From Candidatus Rokuibacteriota bacterium (lineage in GTDB: Bacteria > Methylomirabilota > Methylomirabilia > Rokubacteriales > CSP1-6), in the NCBI GenBank assembly GCA_040902305.1, contig JBBDXN010000144.1:3532-67531 (forward strand): a DNA stretch of 64,000 bases, written 5' to 3'. The position numbers and the translations under genes were made by a program. The notes beneath the pieces were generated by a model, which had not been told where the DNA came from, searched no databases, and saw only the letters and a program-made list of their open reading frames with translations. Positions within the stretch are counted from its first letter, which is position 1. The number at the start of each line of letters is the position of its first letter. This document shows, piece after piece, positions 4,531-42,575 of this stretch.

Positions 4531-4604
4531 TGGCTGGGGCGGGAGGGATCGAACCTCCATCTCGGGCTTCAAAGACCCGGGTCCTGCCATTGGACGACGC
4601 CCCA
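4531..4604 (-). tRNA. tRNA-Gln (anticodon UUG), CCA encoded
   Basis: Hand-folded cloverleaf on the reverse strand. Acceptor TGGGGCG/CGCCCCA. D arm GTCC-AATGGCA-GGAC. Anticodon stem CGGGT/GCCCG with loop CTTTGAA. T arm GGAGG-TTCGATC-CCTCC. Discriminator G followed by CCA. Confidence 0.88.
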
Positions 4605-4727: not shown

Positions 4728-4763
4728 GTCTCGTCAGTCTCGTCGGTCTCATCAGTCTCATCT
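4728..4763. repeat. Four tandem 9-bp units just 3' of the ispE stop
   Basis: GTCTCGTCA GTCTCGTCG GTCTCATCA GTCTCATCT, read directly from the sequence. Confidence 0.75.
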
Positions 4764-33861: not shown

Positions 33862-35220
33862 GTGGCCACGCTGACCGACCTGCTCACCTCCAAGATCCCT
33901 CCCCATAGCCTGGAGGCGGAGCGGGCCGTCCTGGGGGCGATCCTGCTGGAGCGGGAGAGCCTGCCCAAGGCCATCGAGCTGCTCAAGCCCGCCGACTTCT
34001 ACAAGGAAGGGCACCGGAAGATCTTCGACGCCACCCTCGCGCTCTTCGAGCGCAACGAGCCGGTCGATCTCCTCACGGTGTCGGAGGAGCTCAAGCGGAG
34101 CGCCGCGCTGGAGGAGGTCGGCGGCGCCGCGGCCCTCGCGAGCCTGGTCGAGGAGGCGGCCACCGCCGCCCATCTCCTCTCCTACGGGGCCATCGTCCGG
34201 GAGAAGGCGCTGCTCCGCGATCTCATCCGCATCGCCACCGAGATCATCGGACAGAGCTACGAGGCGCGGGACGACGTGGACAAGCTGCTCGACGACGCCG
34301 AGCGGCTGATCTTCCAGGTCTCCGAGCGGCGGATGCAGGGCTCGGCCTTCCCGGTGCGGGCGATCCTGAAGGACACCTTCGAGCACATCGAGAAGCTCTA
34401 CGATCGCAAGGAGCACATCACCGGGCTCGCCACCGGCTTCGACGACCTCGACCGCATGACGTCGGGCTTCCAGCCCAGCGACTTCATCATCATCGCGGGC
34501 CGGCCGTCGATGGGCAAGACCGCCTTCGCGCTGAACGTCGCCAAGTACGCGGGCGTGGAGGATCACAAGCGCGTGCTCGTCATGAGCCTCGAGATGTCCA
34601 AGGAGCAGCTCGTGCAGCGGCTCCTCTGCGCCGAGGCCAAGGTGGACTCGCACAAGGTGCGCACCGGCTATCTCGACCCTCGCGATTGGACGCGGCTCAC
34701 CAACGCGGCGGGGCGGCTGGCCGAGGCGCCGATCTACATCGACGACTCGCCCGCGCTCACGGTGCTGGAGGCGCGGGCGAAAGCGCGGCGCATGAAGGCC
34801 GAGCACGGGCTCGACCTGATCGTCATCGACTACCTGCAGCTGATGCGCGGCCGCCACCAGCAGGAGAACCGCCAGCAGGAGATCTCGGAGATCTCCCGGT
34901 CGCTCAAGGCCCTGGCCAAGGAGCTGAACGTGCCGGTGGTGGCGCTGTCCCAGCTCTCCCGCGCGGTGGAGACGCGCGAGCGCAAGGAGCCCCAGCTCTC
35001 CGACCTGCGGGAGTCGGGCGCGCTCGAGCAGGACGCCGACGTGATCCTCTTCCTCTACCGGCCCGAGCGCTATGGGCTGCAGTCGGAGGACGGGGACCGG
35101 GTGGCCGACGTCATCATCGGCAAGCAGCGCAACGGGCCAACCGGCAAGATCCAGGTGACCTTCATCCCCGAGTACGCCTCCTTCGAGCGTCTGGCCAAGC
35201 GCGAGGCCCAGCCCTTCTAG
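33862..35220 (+). CDS. dnaB: Replicative DNA helicase DnaB
   Basis: PHSLEAERAVLGAILL N-terminal domain. Walker A GRPSMGKTAFALN. Motifs IVIDYLQLM, SQLSRAVE, and the Arg finger region. Confidence 0.96.
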   Translation: MATLTDLLTSKIPPHSLEAERAVLGAILLERESLPKAIELLKPADFYKEGHRKIFDATLALFERNEPVDLLTVSEELKRSAALEEVGGAAALASLVEEAATAAHLLSYGAIVREKALLRDLIRIATEIIGQSYEARDDVDKLLDDAERLIFQVSERRMQGSAFPVRAILKDTFEHIEKLYDRKEHITGLATGFDDLDRMTSGFQPSDFIIIAGRPSMGKTAFALNVAKYAGVEDHKRVLVMSLEMSKEQLVQRLLCAEAKVDSHKVRTGYLDPRDWTRLTNAAGRLAEAPIYIDDSPALTVLEARAKARRMKAEHGLDLIVIDYLQLMRGRHQQENRQQEISEISRSLKALAKELNVPVVALSQLSRAVETRERKEPQLSDLRESGALEQDADVILFLYRPERYGLQSEDGDRVADVIIGKQRNGPTGKIQVTFIPEYASFERLAKREAQPF

Positions 35221-35263
35221 GCCGGCCGCCTGGACCGTGACTCCAGGAGCTTGAGTCTCCAGG

Positions 35264-36616
35264 ATGACCAAGGTCGTGATCGTCGGGGCGGGCAAGGGCG
35301 GGCGCGCCCTGCTCGAGATGTTCAGCGGCGATCCCACCGTCACGATCATCGGGGTCGCCGACGTGAATCCCTGGGCACCCGGGCTCGAGCTGGCCCGCCG
35401 CCTCAACGTCACGGTCAGCACCGACCTGGGCGAGCTGATCGCGGATCCCCGGGTCGACCTCATCATCGACGTGACCGGAAACGCGCAGGTGCAGGAGGCC
35501 ATCCAGCGGCTCAAGCCGGCCGGCGCCGAGGTGATGGGGGGCGCGAGCGCCAAGTTCATGTGGGATCTCCTGGCCGAGCGGAAGCGAACCGAGGAGCTGG
35601 AAGACCGCTACTCGCTGATGCTCCGTGAGCTGCAGGCCAAGGCGGAGGGCGACTTCATCATCGGGCAGAACCCGAAGATGCGCGAGCTGGCCGAGCAGAT
35701 CATCCGGGTGGCCCAGACCCCCACCACCGTGCTCATTCGCGGGGAATCCGGGACCGGCAAGGAGCTGGTGGCGCGGGCCATCCACCGCTATTCGAACCTG
35801 CGCGACAAGCCGCTCGTCACCGTCAACTGCACCGCGCTCACGCCCACTCTGATGGAGTCGGAGCTGTTCGGGCACAAGCGCGGGGCGTTCACCGGCGCGG
35901 TGGCCGACAAGGCGGGCCTCTTCGAGAAGGCGGACGGCGCGACCATTTTCCTCGACGAGATCGGGGACATGCCGCTCGAGATGCAGGGCAAGCTGCTGCG
36001 GGTGCTACAGGCGGGGGAGGTGAAGTCCGTCGGCGACGTCGTCACCCGCAAGGTGCGCGTGCGGGTGATCGCGGCCACCAACCGCGACCTCGAGAAGGCC
36101 CTCGCCGGATCCGAGTTTCGGGAAGACCTCTTCTACCGGTTCAACGCCTTCACGGTGCTCCTTCCGCCGCTGCGCGAGCGCAGCGAGGACATCCCGGTCC
36201 TGGCCTACCACTTCCTGCGCAAGGCGGAGGCCAAGGTGAACAAGAAGATGGATCGGTTCTCCCAGGACGCCCTCGACCTGCTGAAGCGCTATGCGTGGCC
36301 GGGCAATCTGCGAGAGCTGGAGAACATCATCGAGCGGGCGGTGGTGCTGTCCTCGAGCCAGCAGGTCGATGTTGCTCACCTGCCGCTCTATCTGCAGGAG
36401 TCGGGCCCGATCCGCGTCACCACCCAGGAAGGGTTCGTGCAGGCCAAGGCGCGGGTCGTGTCGATGTTCGAGAAGGAGGCCGTCGCTCGGTTCCTGTCGG
36501 AGGCCCGTGGCAATATCTCGGTCGCGGCTCAGAAGGCCGGAATCACCCGGAGAAACTTCCATCGCCTGCTCTCCAAGTACGCGGTCAACACGAAGAAATT
36601 CAAGAATGAGTCGTAG
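35264..36616 (+). CDS. Sigma-54-dependent transcriptional activator (bEBP) with a Rossmann-like N-terminal domain instead of a receiver domain
   Basis: AAA+ motifs GESGTGKE, GAFTGA, IFLDEIG. C-terminal HTH ISVAAQKAGITRRNFHRLLSKY. The N-terminal ~110 aa begin KVVIVGAGKGGRALLE (dinucleotide-binding-like). Confidence 0.9.
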   Translation: MTKVVIVGAGKGGRALLEMFSGDPTVTIIGVADVNPWAPGLELARRLNVTVSTDLGELIADPRVDLIIDVTGNAQVQEAIQRLKPAGAEVMGGASAKFMWDLLAERKRTEELEDRYSLMLRELQAKAEGDFIIGQNPKMRELAEQIIRVAQTPTTVLIRGESGTGKELVARAIHRYSNLRDKPLVTVNCTALTPTLMESELFGHKRGAFTGAVADKAGLFEKADGATIFLDEIGDMPLEMQGKLLRVLQAGEVKSVGDVVTRKVRVRVIAATNRDLEKALAGSEFREDLFYRFNAFTVLLPPLRERSEDIPVLAYHFLRKAEAKVNKKMDRFSQDALDLLKRYAWPGNLRELENIIERAVVLSSSQQVDVAHLPLYLQESGPIRVTTQEGFVQAKARVVSMFEKEAVARFLSEARGNISVAAQKAGITRRNFHRLLSKYAVNTKKFKNES

Positions 36617-36716
36617 ATAACTCATTGGTGGGTCGGATTAGACTCACTGGTTTCTGTACGGTAACTATGTAGGTTAGAATGGATTATCTCCAAGTGCGAA
36701 AGAGAATCCGGCTCCA

Positions 36717-36740
36717 GAGTGAGACAACGGTGTCTCATTC
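36717..36740. promoter_or_regulatory. Inverted repeat, candidate activator binding site (UAS)
   Basis: GAGTGAGACA-ACGG-TGTCTCATTC (core TGAGACA/TGTCTCA perfect) lies ~65-85 bp upstream of the candidate -24/-12 element. A related half-site AGACTCA is at 36641-47. Confidence 0.4.
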
Positions 36741-36800
36741 TCGATGTCGTCCGAGTGCACATAGCTAGCTGAATCAGGTAGTTCCAGCCGTTCTATCCCC

Positions 36801-36816
36801 TGGAACGCTTCTTGTC
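36801..36816 (+). promoter_or_regulatory. Candidate sigma-54 (-24/-12) promoter
   Basis: TGGAAC-GCTTC-TTGTC versus consensus TGGCAC-N5-TTGCW. GG and spacing are correct, but the -12 GC is GT. It lies 37 nt upstream of the ATG at 36853. Confidence 0.35.
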
Positions 36817-36852
36817 TCTTTCGTGAGCATCGCTTGCTCAAAGGAGGAGGCC

Positions 36853-37056
36853 ATGGGGGCCCACTGCCGTTGCGGAACCGCCGTCGAGTTTTCCTTCAAC
36901 CACCTGGGCTGTATCGCCTGCGGGGCCGCTTGCTGCCCCGCCTGCTCCTACCAGCTCGAGTCCACCAACTATTGCCCGGCCTGCGCGGAGGCGCTGCTGG
37001 ACCTGCCGTGGGCGAGGCTCGTCAGCTCCGTGCAGACCGCACCGGGCCTGGCCTGA
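36853..37056 (+). CDS. Cys-rich small protein (67 aa, 9 Cys; zinc-ribbon/B-box-like), hypothetical
   Basis: AAGGAGGAGG SD then ATG. MGAHCRCGTAVEFSFNHLGCIACGAACCPACSYQLESTNYCPACAEALL has CxC, CxxC, CCxxC and CxxC spacing. Confidence 0.6.
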   Translation: MGAHCRCGTAVEFSFNHLGCIACGAACCPACSYQLESTNYCPACAEALLDLPWARLVSSVQTAPGLA

Positions 37057-37090
37057 GCTGAACGAACCTCGATTTACAAGGAGGGTGAAC

Positions 37091-38062
37091 ATGGAATCCA
37101 AGGGAGCGACGTTCCGCCGGCTTCTCCGGGACGAGCCCTATCTCTTCACCGGCGGCATCTACTCGCCGCTCGACGCCCAGATCGCGGAGCAGGCCGGGAT
37201 GAAGTCCATCTACCTGAGCGGCTACTCGCTGGCCATGCTCAACGGCTGGCCCGACATGGGCTTTCTCACGATGACCGAGGTGACCAAGGCCGCCTCCATG
37301 GTGGCCAGCGCGGTCGACGTCCCGATCATCGCCGACGCCGACGATGGCTACGGCAACGCCCTCTCGACCATGCGCACGGTGCAGGAGTTCGTGAAGACCG
37401 GGGTGGCGGGTATCCATCTCGAGGATCAGCGCTTCCCGAAGCGCTGCGGCCACATCGCGGGGAAGACGATCGTGTCGCGGGAGGAGGCACTCGGCAAGTA
37501 CCGGTCCGCCCTCGTGGAGCGCGACCGGCTGGACCGCGACTTCGTGGTCATCGCCCGCACCGACGCCTACGGCGCGGTGGGCGGGAGCATGGAGGAGGCG
37601 ATCTGGCGCGGCCGGGCCTACGGCGACGCGGGGGTGGATCTCGTGTGGGCCGAGCTGTCGAATGCCGACCGCGGGCCCGCCATCGAGTTCGCGCGCGCCA
37701 TGAAGGAGACCCACCCGCATCTGCCGCTCGCCTTCAACTACTCCTCGTCGTTCCGCTGGCACCAGGACGCCAACCCGCTCACCTTCCGCGAGCTGGGCGA
37801 GCTCGGTTACCGCTTCATCTTCATCACGCTCTTCGGGGCCCACGCCGCGATGCACTCGGTGTGGAACTTCATGCAGGAGCTGGTGAAGAACGAGGAGCAG
37901 GCCCAGTGGACGCTCGAGCGCCTGAAGGCGGGGCATCCCACCGAGAGCCATCACGTGATGGCGCGGGTCTCGCACTTTCAGGAGCTGGAGCGCCGGTACA
38001 TTCCGGGCACCGAGAAGCGCCTGCAGGGCTCCGCGGGGTTCGGGGAGGACAAGGAGCACTGA
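37091..38062 (+). CDS. Isocitrate lyase/PEP mutase superfamily protein (short ICL-like)
   Basis: AAGGAGGG SD. Signature EDQRFPKRCGHIAGK (K[KR]CGH). IIADADDGYG. ICL-like C-terminal segment SHHVMARVSHFQELERRYIP. 323 aa from ATG 37091. Confidence 0.84.
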   Translation: MESKGATFRRLLRDEPYLFTGGIYSPLDAQIAEQAGMKSIYLSGYSLAMLNGWPDMGFLTMTEVTKAASMVASAVDVPIIADADDGYGNALSTMRTVQEFVKTGVAGIHLEDQRFPKRCGHIAGKTIVSREEALGKYRSALVERDRLDRDFVVIARTDAYGAVGGSMEEAIWRGRAYGDAGVDLVWAELSNADRGPAIEFARAMKETHPHLPLAFNYSSSFRWHQDANPLTFRELGELGYRFIFITLFGAHAAMHSVWNFMQELVKNEEQAQWTLERLKAGHPTESHHVMARVSHFQELERRYIPGTEKRLQGSAGFGEDKEH

Positions 38063-38072
38063 GACCTCAACC

Positions 38073-38109
38073 GCGGCGACCGGGGCCCCCGCCGAGTCCC
38101 GGCCGCCGC
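38073..38109. terminator. GC hairpin between convergent genes (weak terminator candidate)
   Basis: GCGGCGACCGGG / CCCGGCCGCCGC pairs 11 of 12 with a 13-nt loop. No U-tract. Confidence 0.3.
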
Positions 38110-38115
38110 AGGAGA

Positions 38116-38733
38116 TCAGGTCCCTTCGCGTCGGCGCACCGCCTGGGCGATGCGCACCGCGACCAGCGCGAGGACGCCGACCAGCACCACGACCAGCACG
38201 ATCCGCTCGACCTCGCCGACCGCGTAGCGCAGGCGCTCCACGTAAGCTCCGAAGCCGTAGCCCACCGCGTAGCCGGCGCCGACCATCACCGGCACGTAGA
38301 CCAGCGCGCCCGCCACGTTGGCGACGAGGAACGACGAGAGGCGCATCCCGAGCGCCCCCGCGAGCGGGCCCGCGGTGAATCGGACGCCGGGAACGAACCG
38401 GGCCACGAAGACCGCCACCGGTCCGCGCCGGCGCACGAACGCCTTCATGGTCTCGAGCCGCTCGGGGTGCCCGAGCACCCAGCGGGCGTAGCGCGGCAGC
38501 GCGGTCTGGCCGTAGCGCCGTCCGAGCCAGTAGCCGATATTGTCGCCGACGACCGCGCTGACGATGCCGACCGCCAGCACGAAGGAGAGACGGAGCTTGC
38601 CGCGCCAGACCAGGTAGCCGGCCAGGGCGAGGATGGTCTCCTCCGGCACGGGAAGGCCCACGTTGCCGAGCACCACCACCACGAAGATGGCGGCGTAGCC
38701 CCAGTGACCGACGAACTCTTGCAGGTCGCTCAC
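38116..38733 (-). CDS. DedA family membrane protein
   Basis: Motifs GYAAIFVVVVLGNVGLPVPEETILALAGYL and FVARFVPGVRFTAGPLAGA. 205 aa. Confidence 0.9.
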   Translation of the reverse strand: MSDLQEFVGHWGYAAIFVVVVLGNVGLPVPEETILALAGYLVWRGKLRLSFVLAVGIVSAVVGDNIGYWLGRRYGQTALPRYARWVLGHPERLETMKAFVRRRGPVAVFVARFVPGVRFTAGPLAGALGMRLSSFLVANVAGALVYVPVMVGAGYAVGYGFGAYVERLRYAVGEVERIVLVVVLVGVLALVAVRIAQAVRRREGT

Positions 38734-38937: not shown

Positions 38938-40755
38938 ATGAATATCAGCGCCGTCAAGAAGCTGTTCGTGGGATCACCGCTCGCAACGGCGCAGGCCCGA
39001 CACGAGCGGCTCTCGAAGACGTCCGCGCTCGCGGTGTTCTCCTCCGACGCGCTCTCCTCGGTGGCCTACGCGAGCGAGGAGATCCTGCTCGTCCTGGTGC
39101 TGGCGGGCGCCGCCGCGCTCGCCTATTCGATCCCCATCGGCATCGCGATCGTGATCCTCATCGCGGTGGTGGTGAGCTCGTACCGGCAGACCATCCTGGC
39201 CTATCCCCAGGGCGGCGGCGCCTACATCGTCACCAAGGACAACCTGGGCACGCTGGCCGGGCTCGTCTCGGCGGGGGCGCTGCTCATCGACTACGTGCTG
39301 ACGGTGGCGGTGAGCGTCGCGGCGGGCGTGGCCGCCATCACCTCCGCCTTTCCCGCGCTGTACGACTACCGCATCCCGCTCGGCGTGCTGTTCGTCGCGG
39401 GCATCGCCACCATGAACCTGCGCGGCCTGCGGGAGTCGAGCAATCTGTTCGCGGTGCCCACGTACCTCTTCGTGGTGAGCTTCGCGGGCATGCTCGCCTA
39501 CGGGTTCTTCCGCTGGGCCGCCGGGTGGGAGACCCCGCCGCCCCCCGCCGCCACCGTCGCCATGACCCAGGACCTGACCGTCTTCCTCGTGCTCCGCGCG
39601 TTCTCCTCCGGCTGCACCGCGCTGACCGGGGTCGAGGCGGTGTCCGACGGCGTGCCCGCCTTCCGGAGTCCGGAGGCGCACAACGCGCGGGTGGTCCTCG
39701 CCTGGCTCGGGGTCATCCTGATCGCGCTGTTCATGGGCGTCACGTTCCTGGCCCATCACTTCCACGTGATGCCGCGCGCGGAGGAGACGGTGGTCTCGCA
39801 GCTCGCCCGCCTCATCTTCGGCGGCGGGCTGCTCTACTACGAGATCCAGGTCGTCACCATGCTCATCCTCGTCTTCGCGGCCAACACCGCCTTCGCGGAT
39901 TTCCCGCGGCTGGCCTACTTCCTGGCCCGCGACGGCTTCATTCCTCGCCAGTTCGCCACCCGGGGTGACCGCCTCGTGTTCTCCAACGGGATCCTGATCC
40001 TGGGCGGCCTCGCCGCGCTGCTCATCGTGCTCTTCGGGGGCGCCACCCACGCCTTGATCCCTCTCTACGCGGTGGGTGTCTTCCTCTCCTTCACGCTCTC
40101 GCAGGCCAGCATGGTGCGGCGCTGGCTCTCACGGCGAGAGCCGGGCTGGCGCTGGCGCTGGGTCCTCAACGCGGCGGGCGCCGCCACCACCGGCCTCGTG
40201 ATGCTGGTGATCGCGGTCACCAAGTTCAGTCACGGGGCCTGGATGGTCGTGCTGCTGATCCCCCTGCTCGTGATGCTCTTCCTGATGATCCATCGCCACT
40301 ACGCCGACGTGGCCGGCCAGCTCTCGCTCGATGCCTACGGCGGCCCGCCTCCCATCGATCACACGGTGCTGGTGCTGGTGGGCGATCTTCACCGCGGCGT
40401 CGCGGCCGCGCTTCGCTACGCGCAGAGCCTGTCCGCCTCCGTGAAGGCGGTCTACGTGGAGCTGGATCCGGAGCGGACGCAGAAGCTCGAGGAGAAGTGG
40501 GGCAGGTGGGGGCTCGGCATTCCCCTGGTGGTGCTGAGCTCGCCGTACCGCTCGCTGCTCACCCCGTTCCTCGACTACGTCGACCACCTGCTGGCCCTCG
40601 GCGAGCGCCAGGTGGTCACGATCGTGATCCCCGAGTTCGTGCCGGCCCGCTGGTGGCAGCATCTCCTGCACAACCAGACCGCCCTGCTCATCAAGGGGGC
40701 GCTGCTGTTCCGCAAGGGCGTCGTGGTCGTGGACGTCCCCTTCCATCTTCGATGA
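38938..40755 (+). CDS. APC-superfamily permease with cytoplasmic C-terminal domain, KimA (YdaO)-like putative K+/H+ symporter, copy 1
   Basis: 605 aa. Motifs: KKLFVGSPLATAQARHERLSKTSALAVFSSDALSSVAYASEEIL, YPQGGGAYIVTKDNLG, FSSGCTALTGVEAVSDGVPAF, and C-terminal VVTIVIPEFVPARWWQHLLHNQTAL. Similarity to KimA is from memory of the family, not from a search. Confidence 0.8.
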   Translation: MNISAVKKLFVGSPLATAQARHERLSKTSALAVFSSDALSSVAYASEEILLVLVLAGAAALAYSIPIGIAIVILIAVVVSSYRQTILAYPQGGGAYIVTKDNLGTLAGLVSAGALLIDYVLTVAVSVAAGVAAITSAFPALYDYRIPLGVLFVAGIATMNLRGLRESSNLFAVPTYLFVVSFAGMLAYGFFRWAAGWETPPPPAATVAMTQDLTVFLVLRAFSSGCTALTGVEAVSDGVPAFRSPEAHNARVVLAWLGVILIALFMGVTFLAHHFHVMPRAEETVVSQLARLIFGGGLLYYEIQVVTMLILVFAANTAFADFPRLAYFLARDGFIPRQFATRGDRLVFSNGILILGGLAALLIVLFGGATHALIPLYAVGVFLSFTLSQASMVRRWLSRREPGWRWRWVLNAAGAATTGLVMLVIAVTKFSHGAWMVVLLIPLLVMLFLMIHRHYADVAGQLSLDAYGGPPPIDHTVLVLVGDLHRGVAAALRYAQSLSASVKAVYVELDPERTQKLEEKWGRWGLGIPLVVLSSPYRSLLTPFLDYVDHLLALGERQVVTIVIPEFVPARWWQHLLHNQTALLIKGALLFRKGVVVVDVPFHLR

Positions 40756-42575
40756 AGCTCTCCAAGCTCAAACGATGGTTCGTGGGCACGCCGATCGCGA
40801 CGGCCCAGGCTCACCACGAGCGGCTCGGCCCGGTCACCGGTCTCGCCGTCTTCGCCTCCGACAACCTCTCCTCGGTCGCCTACGCGACCGAGGAGATCTT
40901 GCGGGTGCTCCTCCTCGCCGGGGTGGGGGCCCTCGCGTTCTCCACCCCCATCGGCCTTTGCATCGCCGCGGTCATCTGCATCGTGATCCTCTCGTATCGC
41001 CAGAACATCGCGGAGTACCCGCTGGGAGCCAGCGACTACATCGTGTCCAAGGACAACCTGGGGGTGTTCCCGGGTCTCACCGCGGGCGCCGCGCTGCTCA
41101 TCGACTACACGCTCACGGTGGCGGTGAGCGTGTCCGCGGGCGTGGCCGCGCTGACCTCCGCGTTTCCCCTCCTGTACCCGCACCGGGTCGTGCTCGGTAT
41201 CGGGCTGGTCGTGCTGGTCGCGGTGGCCAACCTGCGCGGCCTCCGGGAGTCCGGGCGGATGTTCGCGGTCTGGAGCTACCTGTTCATCGGCGGCTACTTC
41301 CTGTTGATGCTGTACGGTTTCGCGGGCTTCGCCATCTGGGGCCCGCCGTCCGTCGAGAGCGCGGCGCCGCCCCCGCCGCCCCTGACCGAGATCGGCGTGT
41401 TCTTGCTCCTGCGCGCCTTCGCCTCCGGCGCGGTCGCCCTCACCGGGATCGAGGCGGTCTCGGACGGCACCCCCGCCTTCAAGCCCCCGCAGGTTCGCAA
41501 CGCCCAGACCGTGCTCGTCGTCCTCGGGCTGATCATGGTCACCCTGTTCCTGGGCATCACGATGCTGGCCGCCGGCCATCAGATCGTGCCGCGCGACGAG
41601 GAGACCGTGGTCTCGCAGCTCGCCCGCCAGGTGTTCGGAGGCGGCCTCCTCTACTACTTCATCCAGGGCGTCTCGATGGTCATCCTGGTGCTGGCCGCCA
41701 ACACCGCGTTCGCCGACTTCCCGCGGCTGGCCTCCTTCATGGCGCGCGACGCGTATCTGCCCCGCCAGTTCGCCAGCCGGGGCGACCGGCTCGTCTTCTC
41801 CAACGGGGTCATCATCCTCGGAGTCGCCGCCTCCGCGCTGATCGCGCTGTTCGACGGGAGCACGCACTCCCTGATCCCGCTCTACGCCCTCGGCGTGTTC
41901 ACGTCGTTCACCCTGTCGCAGGTCGGCATGGTGCGCCGCTGGTTCACGCGGCGGCCCGCGGGATGGCGGCCGAAGGCGGTCATCAGCGGCCTCGGCGCGG
42001 CCACCACCGGGCTGGTGATGGTGGTCACCGCGCTCGCCAAGTTCGCGGACGGGGCGTGGATCGTGGTCGTGGTCGGCGGCGCCCTGATCGTGGGCTTCGT
42101 GAGCATCAACCGCCACTACCGTGAGGTGGCGGGGCAGCTCTCCCTGGAGGATTTCGCGGGGCCGCCCCCGATGCAGCACACCGTGCTGGTCCTGGTCGGC
42201 GACCTGCACAAGGGGGTCGTGCAGGCGCTGCAGTACGCCCGGACCCTCTCGCCCTCGGCCAAGGCGGTGTACGTGGAGATGGATCCGGAGAAGACCCGAC
42301 GGCTCGAGGAGAAGTGGGGCAAGTGGGGCTTCGGCGTGCCGCTGGTGGTGCTGACATCACCCTATCGGCTGCTGCTGACCCCGCTGCTCGAGTACGTGGA
42401 CCACCTCCTGGCCCTCGGCGAGAACCACATGGTGACCATCGTCATCCCCGAGTTCATCCCGGCCAAATGGTGGCAGCAGCTCCTTCACAACCAGACCGCG
42501 CTGCTCATCAAGGGCGCGCTGCTCTTCCGGCGGAACGTGGTTGTGACGGATGTGCCGTACCACCTGAGGCGGTAG
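40752..42575 (+). CDS. APC-superfamily permease, KimA-like, copy 2 (diverged paralog)
   Basis: The ATG at 40752 overlaps the copy-1 stop (ATGA). It is colinear with copy 1 throughout but has YPLGASDYIVSKDNLG and FASGAVALTGIEAVSDGTPAF. 607 aa. Confidence 0.8.
   Translation: MKLSKLKRWFVGTPIATAQAHHERLGPVTGLAVFASDNLSSVAYATEEILRVLLLAGVGALAFSTPIGLCIAAVICIVILSYRQNIAEYPLGASDYIVSKDNLGVFPGLTAGAALLIDYTLTVAVSVSAGVAALTSAFPLLYPHRVVLGIGLVVLVAVANLRGLRESGRMFAVWSYLFIGGYFLLMLYGFAGFAIWGPPSVESAAPPPPPLTEIGVFLLLRAFASGAVALTGIEAVSDGTPAFKPPQVRNAQTVLVVLGLIMVTLFLGITMLAAGHQIVPRDEETVVSQLARQVFGGGLLYYFIQGVSMVILVLAANTAFADFPRLASFMARDAYLPRQFASRGDRLVFSNGVIILGVAASALIALFDGSTHSLIPLYALGVFTSFTLSQVGMVRRWFTRRPAGWRPKAVISGLGAATTGLVMVVTALAKFADGAWIVVVVGGALIVGFVSINRHYREVAGQLSLEDFAGPPPMQHTVLVLVGDLHKGVVQALQYARTLSPSAKAVYVEMDPEKTRRLEEKWGKWGFGVPLVVLTSPYRLLLTPLLEYVDHLLALGENHMVTIVIPEFIPAKWWQQLLHNQTALLIKGALLFRRNVVVTDVPYHLRR

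Follow-up and report, generated by a model that had tools for sequence, protein, structure and literature searches.

We identified a coherent and real regulatory unit in a 64-kb window of soil Rokubacteria DNA (the window being the whole stretch analysed, 64,000 nucleotides), made up of a sigma-54 activator, three palindromic sites, a sigma-54-type promoter, and the genes of a Cys-rich mini-protein and a compact isocitrate lyase (ICL)-like enzyme. The parts of the unit are recognized by sequence, fold and conservation; its signal, its transcription start and the activity of its enzyme we infer. On balance we favour the reading that the activator represents an NAD(H)-responsive family with a truncated Rossmann input, which controls carbon and redox genes through the three sites and the sigma-54 promoter; here it probably switches on the mini-protein and ICL-like genes by way of these elements. 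The features are as follows.

35264-36616, forward strand: sigma-54 activator (bEBP), 450 aa, with Rossmann-type N-terminal domain, helical linker, AAA+ domain, lid and Fis-type HTH (Pfam, NCBIfam, orthologous clusters)
35264-35539, forward strand: Rossmann domain of the NAD(P) type with five strands (residues 1-92), carrying GAGKGG and with Asp33 ending strand 2 (AlphaFold2, Foldseek, profile, conservation)
35540-35656, forward strand: long helix (residues 93-128, invariant W100) and short linker, from sensor to AAA+ (AlphaFold2 secondary structure, W100 conservation)
36607-36624, unstranded: predicted enhancer site 1, TGAGTCGTAGATAACTCA, overlapping the activator stop codon (motif scan; position relative to the stop codon kept in several orthologous loci)
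36629-36646, unstranded: predicted enhancer site 2, TGGGTCGGATTAGACTCA, its centre 22 bp from site 1 (motif scan, ortholog layout)
36720-36737, unstranded: predicted enhancer site 3, TGAGACAACGGTGTCTCA, with the -24 GG about 74 bp downstream (invariant columns in a 12-locus alignment)
36801-36816, forward strand: candidate sigma-54 -24/-12 promoter, TGGAACGCTTCTTGTC, with GG (36802-3) and TTG (36812-4) invariant in 12 loci
36853-37056, forward strand: 67-aa mini-protein with nine Cys, eight of them conserved (ortholog alignment, fold search)
37091-38062, forward strand: 323-aa compact ICL-like lyase of the ICL/PEP-mutase superfamily (Pfam, NCBIfam and PDB matches)

The proteins most similar to those of the window carry Methylomirabilota (Rokubacteria) names, which places its genome there. 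The gene order is rpsF-ssb-rpsR-rplI-dnaB, the activator, a 236-bp A/T-rich spacer, the 67-aa ORF, the 323-aa ORF, and a convergent DedA gene; the groES-to-DedA stretch is syntenic as a whole in the related genomes examined. Every feature listed in a preliminary description of this DNA was found at its coordinates, including the A/T-rich 236-bp region 3′ of the activator, where G+C falls to 0.43-0.52 (over 36580-36820) against about 0.68 in the flanks. Beyond the DedA gene, the window holds a tandem pair of paralogous permease genes, each about 605 aa (38938-42575), which are AA_permease_2 in orthologous loci.

The activator has the domains of a bEBP: Sigma54_activat (PF00158, 2e-68), AAA_lid_14 and HTH_8 were all matched in Pfam. 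The Walker A motif GESGTGKE and the GAFTGA loop are both intact in the AAA+ sigma-54 interaction domain, and the C-terminal Fis-type HTH scores 23.3 bits for HTH_8 (cut-off 22), so that the motifs described earlier were all recovered; upstream of the -24/-12 element there are three conserved palindromes, and the element itself is a conserved GG-N8-TTG with a variable C at -12. In NCBIfam the activator stays under every equivalog cut-off, and its N-terminus matches Rex models weakly. Orthologs make up more than 120 full-length clusters (78-93% identity). Scanning genomes with the full-length activator gave just two true orthologs; other matches that seemingly aligned from residue 1 were rejected, being ordinary receiver-domain NtrC types. 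There is no rpoN within the 64-kb window, and further bEBPs are encoded on other Rokubacteria contigs.

The N-terminus of the activator had been read as a dinucleotide-binding fold rather than a receiver, GAF or PAS domain, and Pfam, AlphaFold2 and Foldseek agree with this. Residues 1-92 or so (3-91) pass the Pfam cut-offs of GFO_IDH_MocA and NAD_binding_3, and the AlphaFold2 model, for which 38 diverse homologs were used, is confident (pLDDT 95.3), with five strands and flanking helices (2-92) followed by one helix (93-128). Foldseek matched the model to NAD-bound DmpF, GenD2/KanD2 and other Gfo/Idh/MocA enzymes, with a Rex-family protein (3wg9) at rank 30; a profile search against the PDB placed acylating acetaldehyde dehydrogenase first (4e-7; Rex, 1e-3), and by sequence, residues 1-129 match the Rex NAD(H) domain best among PDB entries (5zz5, 3.5e-4). 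The NAD-binding domains of DmpF-type acylating acetaldehyde dehydrogenases and of Gfo/Idh/MocA proteins are the best structural and profile matches, but those enzymes add a catalytic domain that the activator lacks: PF01408 scores 27.9 (cut-off 24), but the remainder of the protein is AAA+ and HTH. The regulatory sensor of Rex is likewise a Rossmann domain that has GxGxxG and an acidic strand-2 end (in our protein the sensor role is predicted); Rex differs in having an N-terminal winged helix, in repressing sigma-70 promoters, and in lacking an ATPase, whereas the Rokubacteria domain is shorter, with five strands, and is coupled to an AAA+ activator. In our protein the Rossmann fold begins at residue 2, and only the C-terminal domain of Rex, not its winged helix, aligns.

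Several residues of this domain are invariant or nearly invariant among homologs: G8, G10, G12 and G13 (the GxGxxG), D33 at the end of strand 2, G72, and W100. GxGxxG with an acidic residue ending strand 2 is the pattern typical of NAD(H)-binding Rossmann folds, and since it is conserved here NAD(H) is the favoured ligand. The CoA_binding family (PF02629) also matches the domain (2e-4 to 9e-4), which makes CoA or NADP(H) a possible ligand; the acylating acetaldehyde dehydrogenases, the best profile match, use both NAD and CoA. We consider it rather unlikely, given the conserved NAD(H)-type pattern, that the architecture and target are as proposed and the ligand is instead CoA/acyl-CoA, NADP(H) or another nucleotide; the predicted targets, discussed below, bear on this reading as well.

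An exhaustive search with residues 1-129 yielded 1,133 clusters at E <= 1e-3, with the match nearly always N-terminal, in proteins of 340-1,291 aa. Among 75 long members with the Rossmann domain, HATPase_c was found in 49, HisKA in 48, GGDEF in 13 and Sigma54_activat in six, and PAS or GAF also occurs in many of them. Judged by these domain combinations (histidine kinases 49/75, diguanylate cyclases 13/75, sigma-54 activators 6/75), the domain is a reusable input module, and its presence at the head of kinases and cyclases supports a sensor role in the activator too. A compact 349-aa HisKA_3 kinase with the domain is common. This kinase, highly conserved and accompanied by a NarL-type response regulator, lies after rplI-glyA-nrdR at loci within L103-L163 (e.g., L109:4929-6708); an activator of a third lineage described below (L119) is likewise downstream of glyA-nrdR. 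The source names for proteins with the domain are kinases or regulators, apart from one N-terminal fragment named "Gfo/Idh/MocA family oxidoreductase, partial". The domain matches no family dedicated to it in Pfam or NCBIfam, and the open-access literature searched describes neither a Rossmann/NAD-binding regulatory domain in a bEBP nor this domain as a sensor.

The preliminary description had one palindrome, TGAGACA-N4-TGTCTCA at 36720-37, and a related half-site at 36641-47. The palindrome is real and conserved in orthologs (its sequence, TGAGACAACGGTGTCTCA, has its sole exact match in the window at 36720-36737), but it is one of three: the half-site sequence is there as described, but it is the right half of a full palindrome (36629-36646), and a third palindrome (36607-36624) overlaps the activator stop codon. 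All three are 18-bp palindromes of the form TGRGWC-N6-GWCYCA and fall in a span of 131 bp across the activator end and the intergenic region. When we scanned the 64 kb for this pattern, allowing at most one mismatch, there were five matches against 2.1 expected by chance, three of them in the 131-bp cluster; the Poisson chance of such a three-site cluster is estimated at about 1e-7. The other two matches, each with one mismatch, overlap each other at 4734-4760 (starting at 4734 and 4743), between tRNA-Gln (4531-4604) and the next minus-strand ORF, and are probably due to chance. Most Methylomirabilota orthologs, and relatives of 56-60% identity, have a similar layout of two or three sites whose offsets from the stop codon agree (about -9 to +3, +9 to +25, and +91 to +117), although three sites are not seen at every locus. 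A comparable arrangement is described for the E. coli activator NorR, which has three enhancer sites upstream of a sigma-54 promoter and is an NO-sensing AAA+/HTH activator with a non-receiver sensor domain (PMC2831303). The sensor of NorR is an iron-containing GAF domain, whereas that of our activator is Rossmann-type, and the site motif and target genes also differ.

The -24/-12 element that had been noted as TGGAAC-N5-TTGT at 36801-15 was located there (TGGAACGCTTCTTGT, 36801-36815). In the 12-locus alignment the sole invariant blocks are the proximal palindrome, GG-N8-TTG, a GGAGG ribosome-binding site and the ATG; the base after TTG varies, being C in five of the 12 loci, T in five (the window included) and A in two, so that the TTGT of the window, against TTGC in five orthologs, departs from the GC consensus. 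The transcription start is predicted near 36826, which would give a leader of about 27 nt. A scan of the intergenic region gave no sigma-70-like promoter, and Rfam gave no match there. A weak terminator-like stem (36789-36807) that overlaps the -12 element was also considered, and rejected as not conserved in orthologs. It is improbable, in our judgement, that the downstream link is only inherited gene order, the -24/-12 match a chance occurrence or part of a terminator, and the real target elsewhere: the synteny of the whole groES-DedA stretch, the imperfect -12 element and the overlapping stem would fit such an account, but GG-N8-TTG and the three palindromes are conserved where the stem is not, and the palindromes follow the activator gene even where the operon downstream differs.

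The first gene past the promoter, preceded by a strong ribosome-binding site (AAGGAGGAGG), is the 67-aa ORF with nine Cys at 36853-37056, as previously described. Eight of the Cys positions are invariant or nearly so (C5, C7, C20, C23, C27/28, C31, C41 and C44). The family comprises 331 clusters, all unnamed, and the organism names, given for only a few, are almost always Methylomirabilota; no Pfam family matched. The model has a pLDDT of 63.8, and its weak fold hits are all two-zinc cross-brace fingers. The mini-protein is probably a two-zinc finger, which we treat as a lead and not a result, because of the pLDDT and because Foldseek with the model gave no match at E 0.001.

The second gene encodes the 323-aa enzyme, whose KRCGH motif and lack of the ICL insertion were both borne out. 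Over its full length it matches, in the PDB, oxaloacetate acetylhydrolase, PEP mutase, dimethylmalate lyase and methylisocitrate lyase (about 1e-37 to 1e-33), while for the C-terminal half alone ICL is best (1e-15, vs. 7e-4 for methylisocitrate lyase). The enzyme resembles AceA and PrpB in its KRCGH loop, in the metal-binding motifs DADDGYG and EDQ, and in the ICL-type NYSSSFRW and FITLFGAH, so the catalytic K-K/R-C-G-H loop and the succinate-binding N-x-S-x-S-F-x-W and T motifs of ICL are all present (KRCGH, NYSSSFRW and FITL align to ICL 1igw and others), and the ICL-specific motifs are kept in the C-terminal half. In detail, it has NYSSSFRW for NCSPSFNW, FITLFGAH for FITLAGFH, and WAELS for WCETS, and it differs from ICL in its size (323 aa, vs. 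about 430 aa in the matched bacterial PDB chains) and in the missing insertion. All NCBIfam equivalog cut-offs exceed its scores, both for ICL (NF011645, 145.5 vs. 562; TIGR01346, 143.4 vs. 276) and for the methylisocitrate lyase PrpB (TIGR02317, 181 vs. 354). We read it from these motifs as a compact ICL-type C-C lyase, putative as to substrate. The homologs among the 120 matches listed all share at least 78% identity, and all those with organism names are Methylomirabilota/Rokubacteria; this search thus provided no distant gene context for the enzyme.

The association of the three genes, which the preliminary description had drawn from adjacency, holds within Methylomirabilota, and only there is the order of activator, mini-protein and ICL-like gene conserved; activators of this type that are more distant stand before other operons. 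In ten Methylomirabilota loci with enough downstream DNA both genes are kept, and at some the mini-protein gene is duplicated. At one locus (L099:6341-6670) a permease-like frame comes straight after the enhancer sites, without the mini-protein or ICL-like gene, and the contig ends there. A second lineage (56-60% identity; L085-L088, e.g., L086:5001-10426) lacks both genes and lies directly before cbbL-cbbS-cbbX-prk, with a CBS protein and a TrxR-like reductase coming before the cbb genes in L085; this position, together with the shared palindromic site layout, suggests sigma-54 control of a Calvin-cycle operon in this lineage, and the intervening element is TGGAAY-N5-ATTGCC. In a third lineage (44-46% identity; L102, L106, L107, L119 and L123) the order is mdh, the activator, a strong promoter (TGGCAT-N5-TTGCW), and then genes for a 66-aa CxxC Cys-rich protein (with no sequence similarity to the mini-protein of the window), a NuoF-like and an IscA-like protein. 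In a Bacteroidota member, the activator faces an acyl-CoA synthetase gene, with TGGAAGCTTGTTGGCA 28 nt before its start. Thus the adjacent operon differs by lineage while a sigma-54-type promoter adjoins the activator gene in every lineage examined, and in each the apparent target of the regulator is the operon next to it.

These targets bear on the nature of the signal. Two of them, the ICL-like lyase and the acyl-CoA synthetase, belong to C2 or acyl metabolism, as a CoA-type ligand would have it, but a redox signal is better suited to the RuBisCO and NuoF-like targets. A small Cys-rich protein is also the first gene past the promoter in two lineages, with unrelated sequences, and partner-controlled activators have precedent, as PspF is controlled by PspA; the N-terminal domain could then serve structure or dimerisation only, with activity constitutive or set by a partner such as the mini-protein. 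This we regard as distinctly unlikely, since conservation is highest in the residues that line the nucleotide-binding site and the domain recurs in the input position of kinases and cyclases. In the NAD(H)-responsive reading that we prefer, activator dimers would bind the three palindromic sites at or just beyond the activator's own stop codon (as the conserved sites suggest); the sensor domain and long helix would set the assembly of the AAA+ ring according to the bound dinucleotide, with the NADH/NAD+ state as the most likely signal; and the active ring would open the promoter at 36801-36816, giving the mini-protein and ICL-like genes as one transcript. A bypass of the isocitrate-lyase type leaves out the TCA-cycle steps that form NADH, and for this reason an ICL-type target fits a redox input.

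More broadly, and more tentatively, the truncated Rossmann domain of about 92 residues with its helix may be a cytoplasmic NAD(H) input module, widespread but hitherto undescribed, for kinases, cyclases and sigma-54 activators, which in the activators would couple redox state directly to the transcription of carbon and redox genes. The outputs of the activators would then differ by lineage: an ICL-type bypass here, a RuBisCO/Calvin-cycle operon in another, and a NuoF-like module in a third. The main known case of bacterial transcription responding directly to NADH/NAD+ is, to our knowledge, the Rex repressor; another NAD-type sensor, modular and present in more than 1,000 protein clusters, would give a broader picture than Rex alone. 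It would also provide testable regulators of how uncultured soil phyla direct their carbon flow, among them a sigma-54 route to the control of RuBisCO, and Pfam-style libraries would gain a domain that is now filed under oxidoreductases only.

Several sequencing runs with coded organism labels contain 65-72% of the words of positions 35000-38400 of the window; these could be contaminant reads of this bacterium in unrelated datasets.
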